Shown piece after piece: positions 36,152 to 63,031 of a stretch of 64,000 nt of DNA. Location of the stretch: the NCBI RefSeq assembly GCF_053078305.1, contig NZ_CP166879.1. One strand, given 5' to 3'. The position numbers and the translations under genes were made by a program. Numbering within the stretch: position 1 is the first letter of the stretch; each line of letters opens with the position of its first letter. The notes beneath the pieces were generated by a model. It was not told where the DNA came from and ran no database searches. It saw only the letters and a program-made list of their open reading frames with translations.

Positions 36152-36986
36152 GATTATCCCCTTCTCCTGCGTTGACGGGCCAGGCAGTCGTCTGGCTCTG
36201 TTTTTGCAGGGCTGCAATCTGCGCTGCAAAAACTGTCACAATCCGTGGACGATGGGACGTTGCAATGACTGTGGGGAGTGCGTGCCACAGTGTCCGCATC
36301 AGGCGTTGCAGATTGTTGACGGCAAAGTGGTGTGGAACGCTGTGGTCTGCGAGCAATGTGATACCTGCCTGAAGAGGTGTCCGCAACATGCCACGCCAAT
36401 GGCGCAATCCATGAGCGTGGATGAGGTGCTTAGCCATATCCGCAAAGCGGTGCTGTTTATTGAAGGGATAACGGTAAGCGGCGGCGAAGCCACGACCCAA
36501 CTGCCGTTTGTAGTGGCGCTGTTTACTGCCATCAAAAACGATCCGCAACTGTGCCATCTCACCTGCCTCGTGGACAGTAACGGTATGTTGAGCGAAACCG
36601 GCTGGGAAAAATTGCTCCCGGTGTGCGACGGCGCAATGCTCGATCTCAAAGCGTGGGGGAGCGAATGTCATCAACAATTAACCGGACGCGATAATCAGCA
36701 GATTAAGCGCAGCATCTGTTTGCTGGCAGAGCGCGGCAAGCTGGCGGAACTGCGTTTGCTGGTAATCCCTGGCCAGGTGGATTATTTGCAACACATCGAA
36801 GAACTGGCGGTGTTTATCAAGGGACTTGGCGATGTTCCGGTACGCCTGAACGCGTTTCATGCCCACGGCGTGTATGGCGAGGCGCAAAGCTGGGCGAGCG
36901 CCACGCCGGAAGACGTTGAGCCGTTGGCTGATGCGTTACGGGAGCGCGGGGTGAGCCGGTTAATATTTCCGGCGCTGTATTTGTGA
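36123..36986 (+). CDS. yjjW: YjjW, glycyl-radical enzyme activating protein (radical SAM)
   Basis: 287-aa ORF with CNLRCKNC radical-SAM cysteine triad and additional Cys clusters; overlaps the yjjI 3' end by 29 bp. Confidence 0.9.
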
Positions 36987-36989
36987 CAT

Positions 36990-37195
36990 GCCGGATACGG
37001 CCTACGGTTCGGCACAGACTTGTAGGCCTGATAAGACGCGTCAAGCGTCGCATCAGGCATTGTGCGCCAACTGCCGGATGCGGCGTGAACGCCTTATCCG
37101 GCCTACGGTTCGGCACAAACCTGTAGGCATGATAAGACGCGTTAAGCGTCGCATCAGGCATTATGCGCCGACTGCCGGATGCTGCCTACGAAGGG
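36990..37195. repeat. BIME/REP array (two near-identical ~100-bp units each containing paired REPs)
   Basis: GCCGGATACGGCCTACGGTTCGGCAC...TGTAGGCCTGATAAGACGCG...CGCATCAGGC repeated twice between yjjW and yjjV. Confidence 0.85.
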
Positions 37196-37199
37196 CAAA

Positions 37200-37982
37200 C
37201 TACCCACTAACGCTAAACACCGCATACGTATTATTAAGCAACACTTCGGCAATCTCATCTTCTGGTTCCGGGCGCAACTCGCAAAGCACGTCAAACACCC
37301 GCGCAGCCTGTTCCGGGCGGTTAGGCTGCCCCTGAAAGCCGTTGAGCGGCATATCCGGCGCGTCGGTTTCCAGCAACAACGATGCCAGCGGTAATTTTGC
37401 GATGACATCGCGGGTTTTACTGGCGCGTGGATAGGTGATAGTACCGCCTACGCCGATTTTGTAGCCCAGCTGTACAAACCGTTCAGCCTGTTGCTGGCTG
37501 CCAGAAAATCCGTGGACAACACCAGCACGCGGCAAATCGTGGCGTTTAAGATGCATCGCCAGTTTGTCGTGTGTGCGCCGTGAATGCAGGATCACCGGCA
37601 GATCGTAGCGTTTCGCCAGTTTCAGTTGTTCGTCGAGCAACCACTGCTGCCTCTCAAATTGCGGATCGTCGCCGAAGAGATCCAGACCGATCTCCCCCAC
37701 CGCCACCACCTTCGCCGGACGCCTTTCCAGCGCCTGCTGTAGCTGCTCAAGAGACACATCGCTATGTTTTTCCAACATACCAGGATGCAAGCCCAATGCG
37801 GCATACAGCGGCTGAAAATTTTCCGCTAACGCCTGCACGCGGGCAAAATTTGCCGCCTCGGTTGCCGGAACAATGATCTTGCCTACGCCCGCTTGTGCCG
37901 CGCGTTGCAGGCTAGCCTCTTCATCACCGCTAAACGGCGGAAAATCAAAATGGCAGTGGGTGTCGATAAAACGGCAAATCAA
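37200..37982 (-). CDS. yjjV: TatD-family metal-dependent DNase YjjV
   Basis: 260-aa ORF (MICRFIDTHCHFDFPPF...), TatD-type HxH motif; the start codon appears to be TTG. Confidence 0.9.
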   Translation of the reverse strand: MICRFIDTHCHFDFPPFSGDEEASLQRAAQAGVGKIIVPATEAANFARVQALAENFQPLYAALGLHPGMLEKHSDVSLEQLQQALERRPAKVVAVGEIGLDLFGDDPQFERQQWLLDEQLKLAKRYDLPVILHSRRTHDKLAMHLKRHDLPRAGVVHGFSGSQQQAERFVQLGYKIGVGGTITYPRASKTRDVIAKLPLASLLLETDAPDMPLNGFQGQPNRPEQAARVFDVLCELRPEPEDEIAEVLLNNTYAVFSVSG

Positions 37983-39052
37983 GCCAGATCCTCATTGTTA
38001 AATGTCGGGTCGTTCGCCTGCGGAGCGTCGCTCACTTCGGCAACCAGCGTATCGTTGGCGACTGGCGCAGGCGGAATAACGATCGATTCCGGCGTCACCA
38101 CCGGCACCAGATGGCGGGTAAGCGGCGCTTTTTCAGTTAATAGCTTACCAACCGTTGCCAGAAAATAACGACCGCATAAACGTCCAAGTTTATAGTCTTC
38201 ACGCAGCGCCGGAAGCCGACTGCCGAGCGCGATACTATGCAACGGCTTCGGCGGATAAATTTCGAATATCCGCAGCTTGCCCGGTGGTTTCTCAATAAAT
38301 TGCTGAATGTCACGATAGCTGGTTTCATGATGCTGTACCAGATTGACCAGCGGTTGCAGGCTACTGTCGCCCAGCCAGCGTTCCATGCGTTTAAACCACT
38401 GCGGCGTATAGTACATTTGCGACGGCACAGTGCGGATGACGACCAACGTTTTTGCTCCCTGCCTTGCCGCCTCTTTAACCGGAATCGCATCACTGATCCC
38501 ACCATCCAGGTAGTTAATGCCTTCCAGCGACACTCCGCTACGATAAAAACCAGGTATCGCACTGGAGGCGCGAATCACATCCAGCCAGTTTTGTTTGGTC
38601 GGTAAAAAGTAATTCGGCGCGTAGTCATCCTGACGACAGGCGCACATATAAAACGATTTGCCGCTGTCAAACAACCGCGCGGCGGTATCCATTTGCAACG
38701 GCATCTGGCTTGCGGTGGCCTCCACCAGCCAGTCGAGATCGATAAGATTTCCTCCACGGACAAAGCGCAATGGATCGAAAAATTCGCGTTTTGTGGTATA
38801 GCGCATGATGACTTTGCGCGCGTAACCGGGCTGATTGCAGATAAACGCCGAGAGGTTCTGCGCCCCGGCAGATGTGCCGAGATAAAGATCGAAAGGATTA
38901 AACTGCGCGCGCATAAACTCATCCAGCACGCCAGCCGTGAAAATTCCACGCTGCCCGCCGCCTTCGCACACCAGAGCTATTCGTCCAGGCTGGAACGGCC
39001 TTAGCGACAACGGCGCAATATTACCAAGCGTTACAGGTATTCGCTGCCCCAC
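37979..39052 (-). CDS. yjjU: Patatin-like phospholipase YjjU
   Basis: ORF 37979..39088; start placed at the in-frame GTG giving (M)GQRIPVTLGNIAPLSL...GGGQRG...GTSAG (patatin motifs); 357 aa. Confidence 0.9.
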   Translation of the reverse strand: MGQRIPVTLGNIAPLSLRPFQPGRIALVCEGGGQRGIFTAGVLDEFMRAQFNPFDLYLGTSAGAQNLSAFICNQPGYARKVIMRYTTKREFFDPLRFVRGGNLIDLDWLVEATASQMPLQMDTAARLFDSGKSFYMCACRQDDYAPNYFLPTKQNWLDVIRASSAIPGFYRSGVSLEGINYLDGGISDAIPVKEAARQGAKTLVVIRTVPSQMYYTPQWFKRMERWLGDSSLQPLVNLVQHHETSYRDIQQFIEKPPGKLRIFEIYPPKPLHSIALGSRLPALREDYKLGRLCGRYFLATVGKLLTEKAPLTRHLVPVVTPESIVIPPAPVANDTLVAEVSDAPQANDPTFNNEDLA

Positions 39053-45061: not shown

Positions 45062-45148
45062 GCGAAGGTGGCGGAATTGGTAGACGCGCTAGCTTCAGGT
45101 GTTAGTGTCCTTACGGACGTGGGGGTTCAAGTCCCCCCCCTCGCACCA
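45062..45148 (+). tRNA. leuQ: tRNA-Leu (anticodon CAG)
   Basis: 87-nt sequence GCGAAGGTGGCGGAATTGGTAGACGCGCTAGCTTCAGGTG...CTCGCACCA; anticodon loop CTTCAGGTG; long variable arm; encoded CCA. Confidence 0.95.
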
Positions 45149-45176
45149 AAAACCACGTTGATATTGCTCGCACTGG

Positions 45177-45263
45177 GCGAAGGTGGCGGAATTGGTAGAC
45201 GCGCTAGCTTCAGGTGTTAGTGTTCTTACGGACGTGGGGGTTCAAGTCCCCCCCCTCGCACCA
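45177..45263 (+). tRNA. leuP: tRNA-Leu (anticodon CAG), one-base variant in the variable arm
   Basis: Same 87-nt tRNA except TGTTCTT where the other copies have TGTCCTT. Confidence 0.95.
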
Positions 45264-45297
45264 AACGAGGCGATATCAAAAAAAGTAAGATGACTGT

Positions 45298-45384
45298 GCG
45301 AAGGTGGCGGAATTGGTAGACGCGCTAGCTTCAGGTGTTAGTGTCCTTACGGACGTGGGGGTTCAAGTCCCCCCCCTCGCACCA
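45298..45384 (+). tRNA. leuV: tRNA-Leu (anticodon CAG)
   Basis: Third tandem copy, identical to the first. Confidence 0.95.
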
Positions 45385-45422
45385 ATTATCTTTACTTCCT
45401 TTCTTGTTTCTTCCCTGTTTTA

Positions 45423-45659
45423 TCATCCCTGATTCAAATTCATTATCATCAGCATGATGCCAGCAATAAGCGCCAGGCACGATGGTAGCAAAACGTAATG
45501 CCGCAACTGTTTGTGATACAGCATCATCGGCGTCAATACTAATCCCATCAGAATGATAATCCGCCATTGATCCGGCGATAAATCCGCATACATCAGCCCT
45601 GCAATCAGCAATCCCGGTAGCAACACTCCCCAGCCACTGCCCAGCGTACGTTGCAACAT
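45423..45659 (-). CDS. yjjZ: Small inner membrane protein YjjZ (78 aa)
   Basis: ORF 45423..45770; start placed at MLQRTLGSGWGVLLPGLLIAGLMYADLSPDQWRIIILMGLV...; the upstream in-frame extension is judged non-coding. Confidence 0.7.
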   Translation of the reverse strand: MLQRTLGSGWGVLLPGLLIAGLMYADLSPDQWRIIILMGLVLTPMMLYHKQLRHYVLLPSCLALIAGIMLMIMNLNQG

Positions 45660-45675
45660 GGTTTCATCTCTTTCA

Positions 45676-45716
45676 TTGATAATGATAACCAATATCATAT
45701 GATAATTTTTATCATT
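45676..45716. promoter_or_regulatory. Fur-box-like sequences (GATAATGATAACC... and GATAATTTTTATCATT)
   Basis: Matches to the Fur consensus GATAATGATAATCATTATC in the yjjZ-fhuF divergent region. Confidence 0.55.
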
Positions 45717-45765
45717 TGCAAGCCAGAGAAATCCCTTGCTATCGGGTAAACCTATCGCTAGGATT

Positions 45766-45786
45766 AGCAATCATTATCATTTAGAT
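45766..45786. promoter_or_regulatory. Fur-box-like sequence immediately upstream of fhuF (AATCATTATCATT)
   Basis: Fur-consensus-like 13-mer about 20 bp upstream of the fhuF start; fhuF is a known Fur-regulated gene. Confidence 0.55.
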
Positions 45787-45799
45787 TACTATCCCGATT

Positions 45800-46588
45800 A
45801 TGGCCTATCGTTCCGCACCGCTCTATGAAGATGTTATCTGGCGAACACATCTCCAGCCGCAGGATGCTGGGCTTGCACAAGCCGTACGGGCGATGATCGC
45901 CAAACATCGTGAACATTTGCTGGAGTTTATCCGCCTGGATGAACCCGCTCCGCTTAACGCCATGACGCTGGCGCAATGGTCATCACCGAATGCGCTAAGT
46001 TCTCTACTCGCGGTCTATTCCGATCATATCTACCGCAACCAACCAACGATGATCCGCGAGAACAAACCGCTGATCTCACTGTGGGCGCAGTGGTATATCG
46101 GCCTGATGGTGCCACCATTAATGCTGGCGCTACTGACGCAGGAAAAGGCATTAGATGTGTCGCCGGAACATTTCCATGCTGAGTTTCACGAAACCGGACG
46201 CGTCGCCTGTTTCTGGGTCGATGTGTGTGAAGATAAAAACGCAACACCACATTCGCCGCAGCATCGAATGGAAACGTTAATCAGCCAGGCGCTGGTTCCG
46301 GTTGTGCAAGCACTAGAAGCGACCGGAGAGATCAACGGCAAACTTATCTGGAGTAATACCGGTTATTTGATCAACTGGTATCTCACTGAGATGAAGCAAC
46401 TGCTCGGCGAGGCTACTGTTGAATCGCTGCGTCATGCCCTCTTTTTTGAGAAAACGCTCACGAACGGTGAAGATAATCCACTCTGGCGTACCGTGGTGCT
46501 ACGCGACGGCCTGCTGGTGCGCCGCACTTGCTGCCAGCGTTATCGCTTACCAGATGTGCAGCAATGTGGCGATTGTACGCTGAAATGA
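45800..46588 (+). CDS. fhuF: Ferric-siderophore reductase FhuF (2Fe-2S)
   Basis: 262-aa ORF ending with the C-C-x10-C-x2-C cluster motif (CCQRYRLPDVQQCGDC). Confidence 0.95.
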   Translation: MAYRSAPLYEDVIWRTHLQPQDAGLAQAVRAMIAKHREHLLEFIRLDEPAPLNAMTLAQWSSPNALSSLLAVYSDHIYRNQPTMIRENKPLISLWAQWYIGLMVPPLMLALLTQEKALDVSPEHFHAEFHETGRVACFWVDVCEDKNATPHSPQHRMETLISQALVPVVQALEATGEINGKLIWSNTGYLINWYLTEMKQLLGEATVESLRHALFFEKTLTNGEDNPLWRTVVLRDGLLVRRTCCQRYRLPDVQQCGDCTLK

Positions 46589-46625: not shown

Positions 46626-47303
46626 TTAATAGGGATGCAACACATTACTTGTTTCGCAATGCCGCATACATAACAGAATATCTGCGGCCTCCAACAACCC
46701 TGCGTCAGAACTGACGCCCAGTTTCGACATCACATTAAATTTATGTGCACGGATCGTTTTGATATTGCGTTTAAGCTGCTCGGCAATTTGTGTCATTGAG
46801 TAGCCACGCGACATAAAGCGCAATATTTCTCTCTCCGTCGGGCTTAACGTCCGGCTTTGGTTAATGTACCACTGATTGTTCAGTCGGTCGGTCGCCTGAC
46901 GTACACCATTTAATGACAAAAAGAGTTCCTGATGAAAAATCTCCAGCGTTGACGCTTTACTTAATACACCGTCCAGCGGTGATGGCGACAATGAACCAAT
47001 CAGCCGAGCTTCAATATCATCATCCGCAATAACTAAACGCCGGGTACGCGGAAACTTAATCGCCAGTTCAGTCAGGCAAGATAATCCCTCTCTGCGCTCA
47101 CTTCTCATGGCAGAAAAAGAAAAAATGACCGCCGCAAACGAGATCCGCGACATGGCATCCTGAAATGACTCCTGACTGGTATAGGTATGGAGCTTATAAG
47201 GGTTGCCCGCAAACTTTCTGAATAAACTCTCAATACCGATACTACTCATGACGCATTTTTCTATGAGTGCGACATTTCTCTTCTTAATTCGGCTGTGTTC
47301 CAT
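46626..47303 (-). CDS. bglJ: LuxR-family transcriptional activator BglJ
   Basis: 225-aa ORF with C-terminal LuxR-type HTH; overlaps the yjjQ 3' end. Confidence 0.93.
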
Positions 47304-47986
47304 TCTGCGGCATCTCCATAAACAGAAGGCAAGTTAAGTTCTCTTGCACCCTGCGCGCTATTTATCCATGCATACATTTCAGCGTTGCTGTGAATTGCCA
47401 GTCGACGCATCGCACTGTTTTTTTGGGCGCTGATAGTTTTATTACTTTTCTTAAGCAATGAAGCTATCTGGTTGATGCCCCATCCTTTACCTAATAGCCG
47501 CAGTACCTTGCGCTCTGAAAGAGTGAGAATGACGGAGCGATAGCTAAAATCATGAGTTTCAGTCATTGCCGGGGAGGTCAGCATGGCGCTGATACGCTCT
47601 GCGTGCGTATTGCCGGAACGTACGGTCTTAACCAGATTCTCAATGGGTTCAACATCAGACAATAACGTCGCCGTAGGGCACATGAGTAATTCTACTGCCT
47701 GGGAATACCAGGAGCGTGACACCATGAAAACCCAGTGAATTTCCCGATATTGTGAGATTAAAGAATAATAATGTTCACAAACAGAACGTGGATCTTCACT
47801 TTCACCGGCTAAATCAGCAATGACTAATCCGGAACGACGTAATTGTAATAAGGTAAGGTCCTCCGCAGAGGCGCTGGATATTATTTCATATTCAGGGAAG
47901 TGAGTCCTCATGACCTCTTTTAACCCTGCTTGCATAACAGGTATTTTACTGATAACAATTCCATTTTTGCAGCATCCTGGCAACAT
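47261..47986 (-). CDS. yjjQ: LuxR-family regulator YjjQ
   Basis: 241-aa ORF ([26 protein letters not shown]...), C-terminal LuxR-type HTH. Confidence 0.92.
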
Positions 47987-48606
47987 ATTTCCTCCACATC
48001 CACTGTCTAAAAATTATGATGGTTTATTCAGGATATTCATTCCTTAAATGTTTCCAGCAAATTAATAGATTAAGCGAATAAATTATCCTTAGCATTCACT
48101 TTCATATCAGCATACTCCTGCTGCACAACAACTCCACTGCATGTGTCAGAAGGTTAGCATCAAATGATAACCTGGTGAAATAGCCTGGAGACATTTAAAA
48201 TATCTACATTAAGTTGTTAGAAATACTTAATGAAAAACAGAAATCTCATTCATTTAATTTATAATTAAATGATATCTCTTCCCGCAGAATGCGGGAATCA
48301 CACAATCAATATTTATTCAATAAAATCTGATGATTTTAACTTGTTAACACTAAAAAACGCGCCCAGCTATCTATTATCCTGACCCGTAAAGGCTAAAACA
48401 ATAAATTCATTATAGTGATAATATTCATGTGATAGTTTGTTTGCGGCGAGAGATAATTCGCTTTTTATCACCGAGCTTGTCCCGATAACCAGGATTAATC
48501 AGCGCAATTTTGATCTTAACCTACCGCAAAACAACCTTGCTTCATGATACAAATGGATTCTCATTATCTGAACAATACGCAGCACGTCTATGACAAAGGG
48601 CGAGTT

Positions 48607-49377
48607 ATGCAAACTGAGCAACAGCGAGCCGTAACACGGCTTTGTATCCAGTGTGGATTATTTCTTTTGCAACATGGTGCGGAAAGCGCGTTGGTTGATG
48701 AGCTTTCCTCACGACTGGGTCGGGCGCTGGGAATGGACAGCGTAGAAAGTTCTATCTCTTCGAACGCCATAGTGCTGACAACTATTAAAGATGGGCAATG
48801 CCTGACATCGACACGTAAAAATCACGATCGCGGCATTAATATGCATGTGGTGACTGAAGTCCAGCACATTGTGATTCTTGCGGAGCATCATCTGCTGGAT
48901 TACAAAGGCGTAGAGAAACGATTTAGCCAAATTCAGCCATTACGTTACCCAAGATGGCTGGTAGCCTTAATGGTTGGCCTTTCTTGCGCCTGTTTCTGTA
49001 AACTCAATAACGGTGGCTGGGATGGTGCCGTCATCACCTTCTTTGCCAGTACGGCCGCGATGTATATCCGCCAGCTGCTGGCACAACGTCATCTTCATCC
49101 ACAAATCAACTTTTGCCTCACCGCTTTCGCCGCCACCACCATTTCCGGATTGCTTTTGCAACTCCCCACTTTCAGCAATACCCCCACCATTGCGATGGCC
49201 GCCAGCGTTCTGCTGCTGGTTCCGGGCTTTCCGTTGATTAATGCCGTCGCCGATATGTTTAAAGGCCACATCAATACCGGACTGGCACGCTGGGCGATCG
49301 CCAGTCTGCTGACACTGGCTACCTGCGTCGGCGTGGTGATGGCACTGACGATTTGGGGGCTACGCGGATGGGTGTGA
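48607..49377 (+). CDS. yjjP: Inner membrane protein YjjP (ThrE-family exporter subunit)
   Basis: ORF 48544..49377; start placed at [30 protein letters not shown] (256 aa). Confidence 0.9.
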
Positions 49378-49841
49378 TCGAATTTCTGTTTGCATTGGCG
49401 CAGGATATGATCCTCGCCGCCATTCCAGCGGTCGGCTTTGCGATGGTGTTCAACGTTCCCGTGCGGGCGTTACGCTGGTGTGCGCTGCTTGGCTCGATAG
49501 GTCATGGTTCCCGAATGATCTTGATGACCAGCGGGTTGAATATTGAGTGGTCAACCTTTATGGCTTCTATGCTGGTCGGCACCATTGGTATTCAATGGTC
49601 GCGCTGGTATCTGGCGCATCCGAAAGTGTTTACCGTGGCGGCCGTTATCCCTATGTTCCCGGGCATATCGGCTTATACCGCAATGATTTCGGCGGTAAAA
49701 ATCAGCCAGCTAGGTTACAGCGAACCGTTGATGATTACCCTGTTAACCAACTTTCTTACAGCTTCATCGATTGTTGGTGCGTTATCTATCGGTCTTTCCA
49801 TTCCTGGATTATGGTTGTACCGCAAGCGCCCTCGCGTATAA
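49368..49841 (+). CDS. yjjB: Inner membrane protein YjjB (partner of YjjP)
   Basis: ORF 49353..49841; start placed at [31 protein letters not shown] (157 aa); overlaps the yjjP stop. Confidence 0.9.
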
Positions 49842-56743: not shown

Positions 56744-58105
56744 GTGGAAAAAGAAAATATCACCCTCGATCCGCGTTCTTCATTTACTCCATCTTCGTCG
56801 GCAGATATTCCCGTGCCACCAGATGGATTAGTTCAACGCAGTACCCGAATTAAACGCATTCAAACCACCGCCATGTTGTTATTATTTTTTGCGGCGGTAA
56901 TCAATTATCTCGACCGCAGTTCGCTGTCGGTAGCAAATTTGACGATTCGTGAAGAATTGGGCTTAAGTGCCACCGAAATCGGCGCTTTGCTCTCCGTGTT
57001 TTCACTCGCTTACGGCATTGCGCAACTTCCTTGCGGCCCACTATTGGATCGTAAAGGCCCACGCCTGATGCTGGGACTGGGGATGTTCTTCTGGTCACTG
57101 TTCCAGGCCATGTCTGGCATGGTGCACAGCTTTACGCAGTTCGTGTTGGTGCGTATCGGTATGGGGATTGGTGAAGCGCCGATGAACCCATGCGGTGTAA
57201 AAGTCATTAACGACTGGTTCAACATCAAAGAGCGCGGACGCCCGATGGGCTTCTTCAACGCAGCTTCTACCATTGGCGTTGCCGTAAGCCCACCGATTCT
57301 GGCGGCGATGATGCTGGTGATGGGCTGGCGCGGGATGTTTATTACCATTGGTGTACTGGGGATTTTTCTCGCCATCGGCTGGTATATGCTCTATCGCAAC
57401 CGCGAGCACGTAGAACTGACTGCCGTTGAACAAACTTATCTCAATGCAGGTAGCGTCAATGCCCGCCGAGATCCGCTCAGTTTTGCCGAATGGCGCAGCC
57501 TGTTCCGTAACCGCACAATGTGGGGAATGATGCTCGGATTCAGTGGCATCAACTACACTGCGTGGCTGTATCTGGCCTGGCTTCCTGGTTACCTGCAAAC
57601 AGCCTATAACCTGGATTTAAAAAGCACAGGGTTGATGGCGGCTATCCCTTTCCTGTTTGGGGCTGCCGGGATGCTGGTCAACGGTTACGTTACTGACTGG
57701 CTGGTCAAAGGGGGAATGGCTCCGATTAAAAGCCGTAAGATCTGCATTATTGCCGGGATGTTCTGTTCTGCCGCCTTTACGCTGATAGTACCACAAGCGA
57801 CAACATCCATGATGGCGGTTCTGCTGATTGGCATGGCACTGTTCTGTATTCACTTTGCCGGAACATCCTGCTGGGGCTTGATCCACGTCGCAGTTGCTTC
57901 TCGCATGACTGCGTCGGTGGGCAGTATCCAGAACTTTGCCAGCTTCATCTGCGCCTCTTTCGCGCCGATCATTACTGGTTTTATTGTTGATACAACCCAC
58001 TCATTCCGTCTGGCACTAATCATTTGCGGTTGCGTCACCGCAGCGGGAGCACTGGCGTACATCTTCCTGGTTCGTCAGCCGATCAACGACCCGCGTAAAG
58101 ATTAA
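56744..58105 (+). CDS. lgoT: L-galactonate:H+ symporter (MFS)
   Basis: 453-aa ORF, 12-TM MFS profile. Confidence 0.92.
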   Translation: MEKENITLDPRSSFTPSSSADIPVPPDGLVQRSTRIKRIQTTAMLLLFFAAVINYLDRSSLSVANLTIREELGLSATEIGALLSVFSLAYGIAQLPCGPLLDRKGPRLMLGLGMFFWSLFQAMSGMVHSFTQFVLVRIGMGIGEAPMNPCGVKVINDWFNIKERGRPMGFFNAASTIGVAVSPPILAAMMLVMGWRGMFITIGVLGIFLAIGWYMLYRNREHVELTAVEQTYLNAGSVNARRDPLSFAEWRSLFRNRTMWGMMLGFSGINYTAWLYLAWLPGYLQTAYNLDLKSTGLMAAIPFLFGAAGMLVNGYVTDWLVKGGMAPIKSRKICIIAGMFCSAAFTLIVPQATTSMMAVLLIGMALFCIHFAGTSCWGLIHVAVASRMTASVGSIQNFASFICASFAPIITGFIVDTTHSFRLALIICGCVTAAGALAYIFLVRQPINDPRKD

Positions 58106-58153
58106 ACTCCCTATGCCCGATAACATTTTGCTTATCGGGCATTTTTATGGCGA

Positions 58154-59818
58154 TTAAAACGTTTCCCAGTTCTCCCCGCTATCTGCCACTGCCATTTTAC
58201 GCGGCGTAGCTGGCGTCACGGTTTTTACCACAGCCGATGTTTCACGCTGCTGTTGCTGCTGTTGCTGAATCCGGAACACTGCCACAGCTTCGGTCAGGCG
58301 ACTGGCCTGCTCTTCCAGCGCGGCGGCGGCAGCGGCAGATTCTTCCACCAGCGCGGCGTTCTGTTGAGTTACCCGGTCCATCTCAGCAACCGCTAAGCCA
58401 ACCTGATCGATACCACGGCTCTGCTCATCAGAAGCAGAAGCTATTTCGCCCATAATGTCCGTCACGCGGGTCACAGCACTGACAATCTCCGCCATTGTTT
58501 CCCCGGCGCTTTCGACCAGCGTAGAGCCAACATCCACTTTCCCCACCGAGTCTTCAATCAGGCTTTTAATTTCACGAGCCGCCTGGGCGCTACGCTGGGC
58601 CAGATTACGCACTTCTCCCGCAACCACCGCAAAACCACGTCCTTGCTCACCCGCACGCGCTGCTTCAACCGCCGCGTTCAAAGCCAGAATATTGGTCTGG
58701 AAAGCAATGCCGTCAATTACGCTGATAATATCGGCGATTTTCTGCGAACTGGTGGAGATATCACGCATAGTCTGCACCACGTTATCTACCACTTTGCCGC
58801 CGCGTTGCGCCGTTTCAGAAGCACTTAACGCCAGGTGGCTGGCCTGGCGCGCATTCTCGGCGTTCTGTTTCACCGTTGCGGTCAGTTGCTCCATGCTGGC
58901 TGCCGTCTCTTCCAGCGAAGCGGCCTGTTGCTCGGTGCGCGAAGAGAGATCATTATTGCCGGTAGCGATTTCGCTGGCACCGCTATAGATGGCATTGGCC
59001 CCGTTGCGCACATCACCGACGGTACGCATCAGTTCTCCCTGCATATGGCGCAAACTCTCTGCCAGTTGCCCCATCTCATTAGAGCCATCCACCTCAATCG
59101 GTTTCACCAGATCGCCGCCTGCAATATGACGAATGCTGTCAATCAGGCGATTCATTGGCGCTACCAACGAGGCTTTAATACCGAACCAGACGGCGAAGAT
59201 GACCGCCAGTACGACGATCATCACGCCCAACAGAATCCACATCGCCTGGCTGTAGGAGGCATTGTTATCGCTGACGGCGATATCATAGAGCCGATCGTTT
59301 TGCTCCATGTAAGCCACATACTGCTTCTCGAAACCGTCCTGATATCCCTGGGTCGGCTGATCAAAGAACTCGTTGATTTTGCCTGCACCTAACAGTTGGA
59401 TCAGCTCCGCCAGCGCATTGTGATAAATATCGTAATTACGTTTGATCTCTGCCGCTGCGGCGGTGCTCTGACGCGGGTCACGCGGCAACGCTTCGTAATC
59501 CGCCCAGTTTTTTTCCGCCTGTTTCAGCGAAATACTGGCACTCTGCATCAGCTCAGCAACGGTTGAACCGCTACCAATATTATTCTGATCCATCATGTAG
59601 CGGATACCCGCGCGGTTGAGGGTGTTACGCGTCTGCAACAACGCGACCCAGCTGCCATTCAGCGTGGATTGCTGCTGACGAATGGTTTGTAAAACAGTGA
59701 AATTTTCTTTGTCATTCTTTAAGGCATTAAAGAACAGACCGCCTGATGTCAGTTGTAAAAGGCCAAAAACGGCCAAAACCAGCAGTAAGCTGGTCACGAT
59801 CTTGATACGTTTTAACAT
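58154..59818 (-). CDS. tsr: Methyl-accepting chemotaxis protein I (serine chemoreceptor)
   Basis: 554-aa ORF with two TM segments, HAMP, methylation sites, C-terminal NWETF pentapeptide; contains a 7-Gln tract. Confidence 0.96.
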
Positions 59819-59848
59819 GGTTTCTCTTTCCTGTGGACCGATGCAAGA

Positions 59849-59875
59849 TTTTCGGCCTGAAATGAGAAAACTTTA
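59849..59875 (-). promoter_or_regulatory. Sigma28 (FliA) class III flagellar promoter of tsr
   Basis: Minus strand reads TAAAGTTT - 11 bp - GCCGAAAA (consensus TAAAGTTT-N11-GCCGATAA) about 30-60 bp upstream of the tsr start. Confidence 0.65.
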
Positions 59876-60045
59876 TAGGTAGCGACTTGAAACTGGTTAA
59901 TTTTACCTCACTTTTTTAATTTTTGTTCAAAAATACAATAACCACTTATTGATACATTTTCTGTTCTTATTTTTTTCACACGAATTGTATCTATTTTGAA
60001 CGAAATATTTTATAGAGTGTGGAATTTTAAGAAAGGACATCTGAA

Positions 60046-60588
60046 ATGTTAAACCGTGACTTCGATCATCTCTCAACGCTATTACATCTCTTTTTTGAAC
60101 GTGAGGATATTTGCCAAAAGCTTAATATTATTGACCAAAACAATATCACCGGTTGGGAAGTGTGGTTCCAGGTAGAGTTTGCTAATATGCTCTGCTCAAC
60201 AGACCATGAATGGTGGCGTGAACAAGCACTTTCCTGTGATATGCGCAAAAAACCTGAGCGCCCGACACTACGCACAGATTTCTTACTACGTAAAAAAGGC
60301 TGGGCACAAGATAGCTATATCGCGCTTGAAATAAAACAAAACAGAGACGCGACCAGTTGTGTTAAAAATATGATCGCAGACTTAGAAAAAAGCGCAAAAA
60401 TAAAACGTTCCGAACTCGATTTACGCAGTTTCTGGACCTTGGGTATCACCCCTATGATAGACAGGGAAAGGCTGGACTCTCTCATCGATTGCTATTTAGA
60501 TGAGAAATTTTATCTTACTAAATCTCGTAAAAAACACGTTTTACTTAAAGAAATAAATAACACACCATATTGCTATATTGTTATTTAA
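60046..60588 (+). CDS. Hypothetical protein (180 aa), low GC, with PD-(D/E)xK nuclease-like motif
   Basis: ATG with RBS AAGGA 8 nt upstream; motif ...RTDFLL (D78) ... YIALEIK (E95, K97) with a preceding Glu-rich helix (E38/E44); AT-rich relative to its neighbours. Confidence 0.65.
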   Translation: MLNRDFDHLSTLLHLFFEREDICQKLNIIDQNNITGWEVWFQVEFANMLCSTDHEWWREQALSCDMRKKPERPTLRTDFLLRKKGWAQDSYIALEIKQNRDATSCVKNMIADLEKSAKIKRSELDLRSFWTLGITPMIDRERLDSLIDCYLDEKFYLTKSRKKHVLLKEINNTPYCYIVI

Positions 60589-60685
60589 TATTTATAGCAT
60601 GAATATAATTTTTAAATGAGTTACACAACCGAGGGCTAAAAATCGCTTCGGTTGTGATCATCATCACATAAATAACCTTCATAAA

Positions 60686-60713
60686 CCTTGCTCAAAACCG
60701 CTCAACCGCAAAA
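60686..60713 (+). promoter_or_regulatory. Probable BtsR (YehT) binding site in the btsT promoter
   Basis: Direct repeats ACCGCTCA ... ACCGCTTA (plus ACCGCAAA between them), resembling the ACC(G/A)CT(C/T)A repeat recognised by YehT; about 170-195 bp upstream of btsT. Confidence 0.45.
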
Positions 60714-60880
60714 CTGACCGCTTACGTCCCTAAAATAACCACTCAGTTATTTACCTTACTTTACGCGCGCGTAACTCTGGCAGCATCACTGCAGGATAGC
60801 GGTCAATTTACCTCCTCAAACGCAACGCAAACCTAGAACGGCTTCGGCCAACTATTAATCAATACATGCCAGGTTTTACT

Positions 60881-63031
60881 ATGGATACGAAAAAACTATT
60901 CAAGCACATACCCTGGGTGATTCTCGGAATCATCGGTGCATTCTGCCTCGCGGTAGTTGCATTACGTCGGGGGGAGCACGTCAGTGCCCTGTGGATCGTG
61001 GTCGCCTCTGTGTCGGTGTATCTGGTGGCGTATCGCTACTACAGTCTGTACATCGCCCAGAAGGTGATGAAACTCGACCCTACGCGCGCGACGCCTGCGG
61101 TTATTAACAACGACGGTCTGAACTATGTTCCGACCAACCGTTACGTGTTGTTTGGTCACCACTTCGCCGCTATCGCCGGTGCCGGTCCGCTGGTTGGTCC
61201 GGTGCTCGCCGCGCAGATGGGCTACCTGCCTGGCACGCTGTGGCTGCTGGCGGGGGTAGTGCTGGCCGGTGCGGTACAGGACTTTATGGTGCTGTTTATC
61301 TCCTCTCGCCGTAACGGCGCATCTCTCGGTGAGATGATCAAAGAAGAGATGGGGCCAGTACCGGGGACTATCGCGCTGTTTGGCTGTTTCTTAATCATGA
61401 TCATCATCCTAGCCGTCCTGGCGCTGATTGTGGTTAAAGCCCTGGCCGAAAGTCCGTGGGGTGTCTTCACCGTTTGCTCAACCGTACCGATTGCGCTGTT
61501 TATGGGTATCTACATGCGCTTTATCCGTCCGGGGCGTGTGGGTGAAGTCTCTGTTATTGGTATCGTGCTGCTGGTTGCCTCTATCTACTTCGGTGGCGTG
61601 ATTGCTCACGATCCGTACTGGGGTCCGGCACTGACCTTTAAAGACACCACCATTACCTTCGCGCTGATTGGCTATGCGTTTGTTTCCGCACTGCTGCCGG
61701 TGTGGCTGATCCTCGCACCGCGCGACTATCTGGCAACCTTCCTGAAAATCGGCGTTATCGTCGGCCTGGCGCTGGGTATCGTGGTGCTGAACCCGGAACT
61801 GAAAATGCCTGCGATGACCCAGTACATTGACGGTACTGGCCCGCTGTGGAAAGGCGCTCTGTTCCCGTTCCTGTTCATCACCATCGCCTGTGGTGCGGTA
61901 TCTGGCTTCCACGCGCTGATCTCTTCCGGTACGACGCCGAAACTGCTGGCTAACGAAACCGACGCGCGTTTCATCGGCTACGGCGCAATGCTGATGGAGT
62001 CCTTCGTGGCGATTATGGCGCTGGTTGCAGCGTCCATCATCGAACCGGGTCTTTACTTCGCGATGAACACTCCGCCTGCTGGCCTTGGCATCACCATGCC
62101 TAACCTGCATGAAATGGGTGGCGAGAACGCGCCGATCATCATGGCGCAGCTGAAAGACGTTACCGCACACGCGGCAGCGACCGTCAGCTCCTGGGGCTTC
62201 GTGATTTCGCCAGAGCAGATCCTGCAAACCGCGAAAGACATTGGTGAGCCTTCTGTCCTGAACCGTGCAGGTGGTGCGCCGACGCTGGCGGTAGGTATCG
62301 CTCATGTGTTCCACAAAGTGCTACCGATGGCTGACATGGGCTTCTGGTATCACTTCGGTATTCTGTTCGAAGCCCTGTTCATCCTGACCGCGCTGGATGC
62401 GGGTACCCGTTCTGGCCGCTTTATGCTGCAAGATCTGCTGGGTAACTTCATCCCGTTCCTGAAAAAAACCGACTCTCTGGTTGCCGGTATCATCGGTACT
62501 GCGGGCTGTGTGGGTCTGTGGGGCTACCTGCTGTATCAGGGCGTGGTCGATCCGCTGGGCGGCGTTAAGAGCCTGTGGCCGCTGTTCGGTATCTCCAACC
62601 AGATGCTGGCAGCCGTAGCGCTGGTACTGGGCACCGTTGTGCTGATTAAGATGAAGCGCACCCAATACATCTGGGTAACTGTTGTTCCGGCTGTATGGCT
62701 GCTTATCTGCACCACCTGGGCGCTGGGCCTGAAACTGTTCAGCACCAACCCGCAGATGGAAGGCTTCTTCTACATGGCAAGCCAGTACAAAGAGAAGATT
62801 GCTAACGGTACTGACCTGACGGCGCAGCAGATTGCCAACATGAACCACATCGTTGTGAACAACTACACCAACGCGGGCCTGAGTATTCTGTTCCTGATTG
62901 TGGTGTACAGCATCATCTTCTACGGTTTCAAAACCTGGCTTGCGGTGCGTAACAGCGACAAACGTACTGACAAAGAAACACCGTACGTTCCAATCCCGGA
63001 AGGCGGCGTGAAGATCTCTTCGCACCACTAA
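60881..63031 (+). CDS. btsT: Pyruvate/H+ symporter BtsT (CstA family)
   Basis: ORF 60866..63031; start placed at MDTKKLFKHIPWVILGIIGAFCLAVVALRRGEH (716 aa); polytopic membrane protein. Confidence 0.95.
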   Translation: MDTKKLFKHIPWVILGIIGAFCLAVVALRRGEHVSALWIVVASVSVYLVAYRYYSLYIAQKVMKLDPTRATPAVINNDGLNYVPTNRYVLFGHHFAAIAGAGPLVGPVLAAQMGYLPGTLWLLAGVVLAGAVQDFMVLFISSRRNGASLGEMIKEEMGPVPGTIALFGCFLIMIIILAVLALIVVKALAESPWGVFTVCSTVPIALFMGIYMRFIRPGRVGEVSVIGIVLLVASIYFGGVIAHDPYWGPALTFKDTTITFALIGYAFVSALLPVWLILAPRDYLATFLKIGVIVGLALGIVVLNPELKMPAMTQYIDGTGPLWKGALFPFLFITIACGAVSGFHALISSGTTPKLLANETDARFIGYGAMLMESFVAIMALVAASIIEPGLYFAMNTPPAGLGITMPNLHEMGGENAPIIMAQLKDVTAHAAATVSSWGFVISPEQILQTAKDIGEPSVLNRAGGAPTLAVGIAHVFHKVLPMADMGFWYHFGILFEALFILTALDAGTRSGRFMLQDLLGNFIPFLKKTDSLVAGIIGTAGCVGLWGYLLYQGVVDPLGGVKSLWPLFGISNQMLAAVALVLGTVVLIKMKRTQYIWVTVVPAVWLLICTTWALGLKLFSTNPQMEGFFYMASQYKEKIANGTDLTAQQIANMNHIVVNNYTNAGLSILFLIVVYSIIFYGFKTWLAVRNSDKRTDKETPYVPIPEGGVKISSHH

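Follow-up and report, generated by a model that had tools for sequence, protein, structure and literature searches.

Between positions 47987 and 48606 of the window, by which we mean the whole 64-kb stretch of DNA that was analysed, a segment of an E. coli chromosome, there lies a non-coding spacer of 620 bp that separates two divergent units, yjjQ-bglJ on the minus strand and yjjP-yjjB on the plus strand. On one side are yjjQ (47261-47986, minus strand), which encodes a LuxR/GerE-type regulator, and bglJ (46626-47303, minus strand), the second gene of the operon, which overlaps the 3′ end of yjjQ; on the other are yjjP (48607-49377, plus strand), which encodes a subunit of a ThrE-family exporter, and, directly after it, yjjB (49368-49841). 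These assignments come from annotation, from the open reading frames in the case of yjjQ and bglJ, and from matches to NCBIfam/Pfam, where BglJ is recovered as an equivalog at 383 bits, YjjQ carries a GerE/LuxR helix-turn-helix domain, YjjP falls in the ThrE exporter family, and YjjB is matched too. The start codon of yjjQ is read as CAT on the plus strand at 47984-47986, and that of yjjP is the ATG at 48607-48609. All 620 bases are identical (100%) in NZ_AP018488.1, E. coli O157:H7 PV15-279, in whose annotation they fill exactly the gap between the yjjQ and yjjP coding sequences, with bglJ behind yjjQ and yjjB behind yjjP, and the layout is equal in K-12 MG1655, with 618 bp separating b4364 and b4365. 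By the start codons, by both annotations, and by the family matches, the extent and divergent arrangement given to the spacer in the initial annotation are exact.

A second ATG, at 48544 and in frame with yjjP, opens a reading frame of 277 aa, and its use would shrink the spacer to 557 bp. This start is not supported, as the ATG at 48607 and the AGGG ahead of it are invariant across 34 spacers from several genera, and it is further disfavored by the stretch 48544-48606 (chiefly 48557-48590), which shows little conservation and contains indels of lengths not divisible by three. Two observations concern the neighborhood. The first is that the window holds three tandem tRNA-Leu genes (Rfam) at 45062-45381, like leuQPV of K-12, where the otherwise identical PV15-279 assembly annotates only one, a discrepancy due perhaps to copy number and perhaps to a collapsed assembly. 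The other is a term-seq 3′ end antisense within bglJ (K-12 4604742, minus strand, about window 46720), located about 130 nt past the stop of the convergent fhuF, and therefore the fhuF transcript appears to finish inside bglJ.

Of 5426 complete E. coli genomes, 5410 carry 80% or more of the spacer, at a median of one place per genome. It can be aligned end to end with its K-12 counterpart, with an overall identity of about 96.5% and about 22 differences, nearly all of them within 48236-48480: identity is 99-100% over the 249 bp next to yjjQ and the 126 bp next to yjjP, and about 92% over the centre. Thus, the experiments carried out in K-12 transfer to the spacer of the window, since the promoter-proximal parts are nearly identical.

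The composition of the spacer is exceptional within the window, with 34.2% GC vs. 51.9% for the whole, the GC minimum of the 64 kb falling inside it, and only 0.27% of all 620-bp windows of the stretch reaching a GC this low. No intergenic gap within the orthologous 50 kb of K-12 is longer than the spacer (618 bp there), the next in size being of 419, 392, and 377 bp, so that its description as unusually long and very AT-rich is borne out. The yjjQ gene, at 44.6% GC, is also under the level of the window. Curvature had been proposed as a check on the initial reading, and the spacer has an 11-bp AA/TT periodicity above 99.6% of shuffles (0.35% attain the observed value), as expected for intrinsically curved DNA; the spacer is therefore AT-rich DNA of the curved type that H-NS prefers. 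As regards coding content, six ORFs of 30-45 aa in the ORF list touch the spacer, of which the five mainly inside it are frameshifted, stopped, or start-less in K-12 or in other Escherichia lineages, while the sixth (47910-48047) is broken in one lineage only, because most of it runs antisense to the coding sequence of yjjQ. The K-12 annotation has no feature inside the spacer, and the earlier statement that it contains no credible ORF agrees with all of this.

Several works that cite Stratmann et al. (2008) state that in K-12 H-NS represses yjjQ-bglJ as well as yjjP, its divergent neighbor, and that LeuO activates yjjQ-bglJ (PMC5025477, PMC3950696, PMC4264507, PMC2646131). Genomic SELEX placed a site for the RpoD holoenzyme and one for H-NS within the yjjP/yjjQ spacer (PMC3946193, Table 1), and the hexamers in that table are CTGATA-17-GATAAT for yjjQ-bglJ and ATGAAA-17-TTTAAT for yjjP (PMC3946193). 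The RNA polymerase holoenzyme binds the spacer in vitro with no helper. In ETEC H10407, a ChIP-seq peak of MarA lies at yjjP<>yjjQ, with binding in vitro too, at the marbox gcatcaaatgataac (PMC5684230). In the mouse gut, insertions of IS1, IS2, and IS5 at -111, -185, and -256 of yjjP were beneficial and arose in independent lineages, and in the sole clone assayed, 25YFP (IS1 at -111), the expression of yjjP was up about 2-fold (PMC5094792). On the window these three sites map to about 48496, 48422, and 48350. The locus stays OFF under laboratory conditions (PMC5025477), and the tables of Kim et al. (2012), which list no transcription start entry for the yjjQ, bglJ, or yjjP genes, are consistent with this silence.

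The internal geometry of these contacts has reportedly been worked out by Stratmann, Madhusudan, and Schnetz in 2008 (J Bacteriol 190:926), who are said to have found H-NS bound away from both promoters, at the centre of a region of “555 bp”, and LeuO sites both central and distal to the yjjQ promoters, with one more overlapping the yjjP promoter; the count of 555 bp is said to come from an older, upstream start of yjjP. The initial annotation had proposed an H-NS-silenced and LeuO-activated control region for yjjQ-bglJ and yjjP, which is what the published K-12 work states and what the SELEX site of H-NS agrees with. This main reading, that of a divergent H-NS/LeuO control region, is correct but already published for K-12, and repression by H-NS, relief by LeuO, and binding of MarA would hold for the sequence of the window as properties carried over from K-12 or ETEC.

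A conservation map was drawn from 34 aligned spacers of many genera, and the functional labels on its islands are given here by inference. On the yjjQ side, the translation-initiation region of this gene (47987-48005, minus strand), with GGAGGAAAT ahead of the ATG, is conserved across genera. Farther in comes the predicted yjjQ promoter CTGATA-17-GATAAT (48082-48110, minus strand), with the hexamers of the RpoD SELEX table, whose -10 block, ATTATCC at about 48082-48090, is partly conserved between genera. The marbox gcatcaaatgataac (48157-48171, plus strand) is intact in the window as a 15-mer identical to the MarA site of ETEC H10407, and the region around it is conserved in part in the same alignment. 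A near-palindrome, TTAGAAATACTTAA (48217-48230), of the LysR-type T-N11-A form, is kept from Escherichia to Enterobacter and is identical in Enterobacter cloacae; it is a candidate regulator site. It adjoins the promoter-like ATGAAA-17-TTTAAT (48230-48258, plus strand) that the RpoD SELEX table lists for yjjP, and which is a predicted element and not a mapped start.

On the yjjP side, the sequence TTGATCT (48510-48516, plus strand), upstream of the core promoter, is a candidate activator or operator site; TTGATC is invariant in 34/34 aligned spacers and contains the sole GATC of the spacer. It is followed by TGaTACAAA (48545-48553, plus strand), conserved in the cross-genus alignment as an extended -10 (TGnTAnAA), which would predict a yjjP mRNA start near 48560, and by the Shine-Dalgarno AGGG with the ATG of yjjP (48597-48609, plus strand), invariant across genera. 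Together with 48230-48258 and with GTGATA-17-GATAAT at 48429-48457 (plus strand), a promoter-like match to the consensus, the extended -10 at 48545-48553 makes three predicted candidates for the promoter of yjjP. Promoter-like sites in the spacer number 7 vs. 4.0 ± 1.9 in shuffles, an enrichment that is not significant. An FNR/CRP-type site centred at about -42 from the predicted yjjP start, with TTGATCT for its left half, was considered and rejected, as the right half, ACCTA (CCAGA in other genera), matches ATCAA in no genus. A separate observation is that in the stretch 48510-48529 many genera show GAGCAA or GCCA some 7-8 bp past TTGATC, a weak dyad that takes the form TTGATC-N7-GAGCAA in Enterobacter, and which may be an operator for some yjjP regulator.

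With regard to the two proteins that give the region its character, the high-affinity motif of H-NS is tCGATAAATT, and a scan of the spacer for this 10-bp motif gave no strong match and four hits with 2 mismatches, the level that AT-richness alone predicts. For LeuO, a core of two 7-bp half-sites 5 bp apart is common to cas site II and leuO site I (PMC6698644), and the protein binds as a tetramer at several ATATTCA-type sites. The motif used here, ATATTCA-N5-TGAATAT, was derived by searching both of these K-12 regions, cas and leuO, for a shared element; the spacer has 15 matches to it at up to 5 mismatches vs. 5.5 in shuffles, with P about 0.001 (about 0.001-0.02 for the enrichment as a whole). 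Two exact half-sites, at 48033 and 48421 (the latter ATATTCA at 48421-48427 on the plus strand, a match to the consensus), make up 2/13 of those of the window in 1% of its length. The best match of the spacer to the full motif, with 2 mismatches, is ATATTCAttcctTAAATGT at 48033-48051, a candidate LeuO site whose lack of conservation outside Escherichia counts against it. The enrichment would be compatible with LeuO binding at multiple sites, and is not proof of it.

Of all the matches to the LeuO core palindrome in the window, the best is found elsewhere, at 60588-60606 (ATATTTATAGCATGAATAT, 1 mismatch), at the 3′ end of a low-GC ORF of 180 aa (60046-60588, plus strand) between tsr and btsT, carried on an insert that is present at a coverage of at least 80% in 362/5426 E. 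coli genomes; in GC, the surrounding stretch 59572-60911 ranks second from the bottom within the window.

The centre of the spacer (48236-48480, 245 bp, 31.8% GC) behaves very differently from its flanks. In the alignment of 34 spacers nothing outside Escherichia can be aligned with it, and it preserves no specific motif; its presence in Escherichia alone accounts for the greater length of the spacer in this genus. Between the O157-type sequence and K-12, the centre differs by 8.2-8.6% vs. 0.4-1.0% in the flanks and 0.8-2.7% at third codon positions, or, in terms of identity, 91.8% for the centre and 99.2-99.6% for the two flanks and the neighboring genes, a divergence in the top 1% of the 245-bp windows over the 46 kb aligned to K-12. 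Compared with other Escherichia species, identity is about 50% in the centre, 80-86% in the flanks, and 60-71% at third codon positions. Within the species, 66% of 5420 E. coli genomes have a centre just 90-95% identical to the allele of the window, and among nine sequences at least three haplotype groups of the centre can be told apart, with some mosaics; this sample was picked by centre identity, which inflates the contrast, although K-12, not so chosen, and the population counts still show it. The synonymous divergence typical of the E. coli genome is estimated at roughly 4%, and because the excess over this value is only about two-fold, the centre is called unconstrained, not positively selected. 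In other words, we read it as free of sequence-specific constraint while its low GC persists. Other stretches of high divergence from K-12, per 245 bp and against a median of 0.8%, are 45331-46236 (8.2%), which takes in yjjZ and the fhuF upstream region, 57921-58906 (7.8%), and 36241-38636 (up to 14%), the last near an alignment junction and perhaps partly an artefact.

Within the centre, the haplotype group of the window, and only this one, has a perfect 8-bp hairpin, TTCCCGCAgaaTGCGGGAA (48279-48297), which K-12 is without. Four changes in six bases have converted TG-CAAAA into TGCGGGAA, which pairs with the upstream TTCCCGCA, bringing the folding energy to -12.2 vs. -1.1 kcal/mol; K-12 and the other haplotype groups have TG-CAAAA or TG-AAAAA at the position of the right arm. 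This looks like the product of a quasipalindrome template switch, of which it bears the classic signature. It could be supposed that the centre is a haplotype-structured tuning module of fast turnover, at least three deep alleles of which, one of them with the hairpin that template switching apparently made, would set lineage-specific thresholds of H-NS/LeuO silencing for yjjQ-bglJ and yjjPB, and if this were true it would parallel in nature the IS insertions that were favored in the mouse gut; we regard it as an unlikely speculation.

A scan for YjjQ with one genome per species, in which the neighbors were located by tblastn, recovered 80 loci. The order yjjB-yjjP <> yjjQ-bglJ ... fhuF is found in Escherichia, Citrobacter, Salmonella, Enterobacter, Lelliottia, Leclercia, Trabulsiella, Phytobacter, and others, with spacers of 387-709 bp and 32-44% GC across these genera within loci of 47-56% GC. 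In Klebsiella, Kluyvera, Raoultella, and the C. amalonaticus group the flanking gene order holds and the gap is of about 2.6 kb, with two genes in it, an FAD-dependent monooxygenase (PF01494) and an AraC-type regulator (e.g., Klebsiella pneumoniae, locus L070, 1153-3235), and in Pseudocitrobacter it is of 1.83 kb, with the monooxygenase alone (locus L030, 1955-3145). Outside Escherichia, amino-acid identity is 55-74% for YjjQ and 39-69% for BglJ vs. 83-91% for YjjP and 78-90% for YjjB, values that show the two regulators evolving faster than the two exporter proteins. In Escherichia albertii NBRC 107761 (locus L007, 2683-3500) only the last 53 or so codons of yjjP are detectable, with the spacer present, and yjjP appears to be truncated or deleted.

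This distribution bears on the idea that the spacer, or at least its centre, was acquired horizontally and is silenced for that reason. The very low GC (31.8-34.2%, with yjjQ also below the window) is what would be expected of such DNA, as is a centre of about 245 bp that has no counterpart outside Escherichia, the spacer being of 620 bp there vs. about 390-460 bp in Enterobacter and most Citrobacter. However, both the gene order and an AT-rich spacer recur in essentially every genus of Enterobacteriaceae recovered, instead of the patchy distribution of an import, and for the whole locus this synteny refutes a foreign origin; nor do the ORF lists and annotations show any integrase, IS, or repeat boundary beside the centre, that is, any scar of insertion, and the spacer is single-copy in nearly all E. 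coli. A horizontal origin is therefore decidedly improbable, and as the arrangement and its AT-richness are conserved across genera, what we have is ancestral core DNA bound by a xenogeneic silencer and not a recent import. Where the initial annotation spoke of xenogeneic-silencing DNA, the part that stands is that H-NS, a xenogeneic silencer, binds here according to the K-12 literature; the part that falls is foreign origin, with the centre alone being specific to Escherichia.

It is very probable that the spacer is the shared control region of the divergent yjjQ-bglJ, coding for LuxR-type regulators, and yjjP-yjjB, coding for a ThrE-family exporter, under H-NS and LeuO as in K-12, with the AT-rich centre as a silencing platform. 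Its operation could be imagined as follows: (i) the core promoters would lie in the two conserved outer parts, some 250 bp toward yjjQ and some 125 bp toward yjjP; (ii) the AT-rich centre of about 245 bp would work mainly through its composition, in such a way that H-NS would nucleate there and spread or bridge over both promoters; (iii) a LeuO tetramer at several ATATTCA-type sites, together with MarA, would disturb the H-NS complex; (iv) and finally, IS insertions 111-256 bp upstream of yjjP would part the promoter from the centre, and expression would rise. The conserved flanks around an unconstrained centre are the pattern that we count in favor of this model, and the three gut-selected insertions, all upstream of the conserved yjjP core, fit with the promoter being cut off from a silencing centre.

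The same divergence could be taken to mean that the centre is functionless filler, AT-rich by mutational bias, and that silencing relies solely on promoter-adjacent sites: the centre changes at or above the rate of third codon positions in both comparisons (8.2-8.6% vs. 0.8-2.7% against K-12; identities of about 50% vs. 60-71% against other species) and keeps no specific motif. Against this, low GC is kept in every genus despite the turnover of sequence, H-NS was reportedly found bound at the centre of the region in the work of 2008, and IS insertions in the centre or at its edge have been selected repeatedly, the one assayed having raised the expression of yjjP, so we hold filler to be very unlikely. 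Even less probable, to the point of being hardly credible, is that the length of the spacer is accounted for by an unannotated gene, of a small RNA or a small protein, in place of promoter control. Its elements would be the promoter-like 48230-48258, a 37-aa ORF at 48269-48382, and a weak terminator-like hairpin with a T-run at 48445-48472 (a match to the consensus), all on the plus strand, to which the stable hairpin at 48279-48297 could be added. Nevertheless, K-12 and Escherichia sp. L003 have frameshifts in the 37-aa ORF, the other four ORFs inside the spacer are broken in relatives, the stable hairpin is missing from K-12, and the segment is the least conserved portion of the region. An Rfam search gave no hit in the spacer, even at E ≤ 1, finding only the three tRNA-Leu genes, and the term-seq table of Adams et al. 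(2021) lists neighboring sites in bglJ, fhuF, and yjjZ and no 3′ end in the spacer. The only terminator-like hairpin, with the promoter and ORF upstream of it, sits in the non-conserved centre. Nothing thus supports the possible small RNAs of the initial annotation, neither a described RNA family, nor a term-seq 3′ end or a transcription start entry, nor a conserved promoter-to-terminator unit, and this suggestion should be dropped along with the xenogeneic label. The silencing platform remains our preferred reading.

Compared with the K-12 yjjP/yjjQ-bglJ region, the locus, the flanking genes, and their orientation are the same, and the SELEX hexamers and the marbox are unchanged in the window; the differences are those already described, that is, 620 vs. 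618 bp, some 22 positions, and the perfect hairpin. The bgl, leuO, and cas/CRISPR-Cascade regions of E. coli are likewise AT-rich, silent in the laboratory, and relieved by LeuO, and the spacer shares with them its ATATTCA-type half-sites. Unlike them, it serves two divergent units; unlike cas and leuO, it is without an equally good 19-bp LeuO palindrome, 2 mismatches being its best; and when the native yjjQ-bglJ operon is activated by LeuO, BglJ is too scarce to close the proposed feedback loop (PMC5025477). The spacer also appears in the same table as the type-A divergent spacers csgD-csgB (755 bp) and nanC-fimB (about 1.46 kb) (Shimada et al., 2014), with which it has in common the RpoD-holoenzyme and H-NS sites between divergent operons, one of them encoding a transcription factor, although it is shorter and has far fewer documented regulators.

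In summary, the finding is correct but ordinary, because the region has already been characterized, and the new details are minor: conserved core elements of yjjP, candidate sites for LeuO and of LysR type, an unconstrained centre with haplotype structure, and a hairpin of the template-switch kind. The spacer controls BglJ, an activator, together with RcsB, of bgl, leuO, and other loci, YjjQ, a repressor of flhDC, and an exporter whose higher expression was selected in the mouse gut, and it is a well-documented example of H-NS silencing core, non-foreign DNA. It carries little weight beyond correct annotation; the conserved elements proximal to yjjP and the fast centre are the targets that it offers on how a silent locus turns on.
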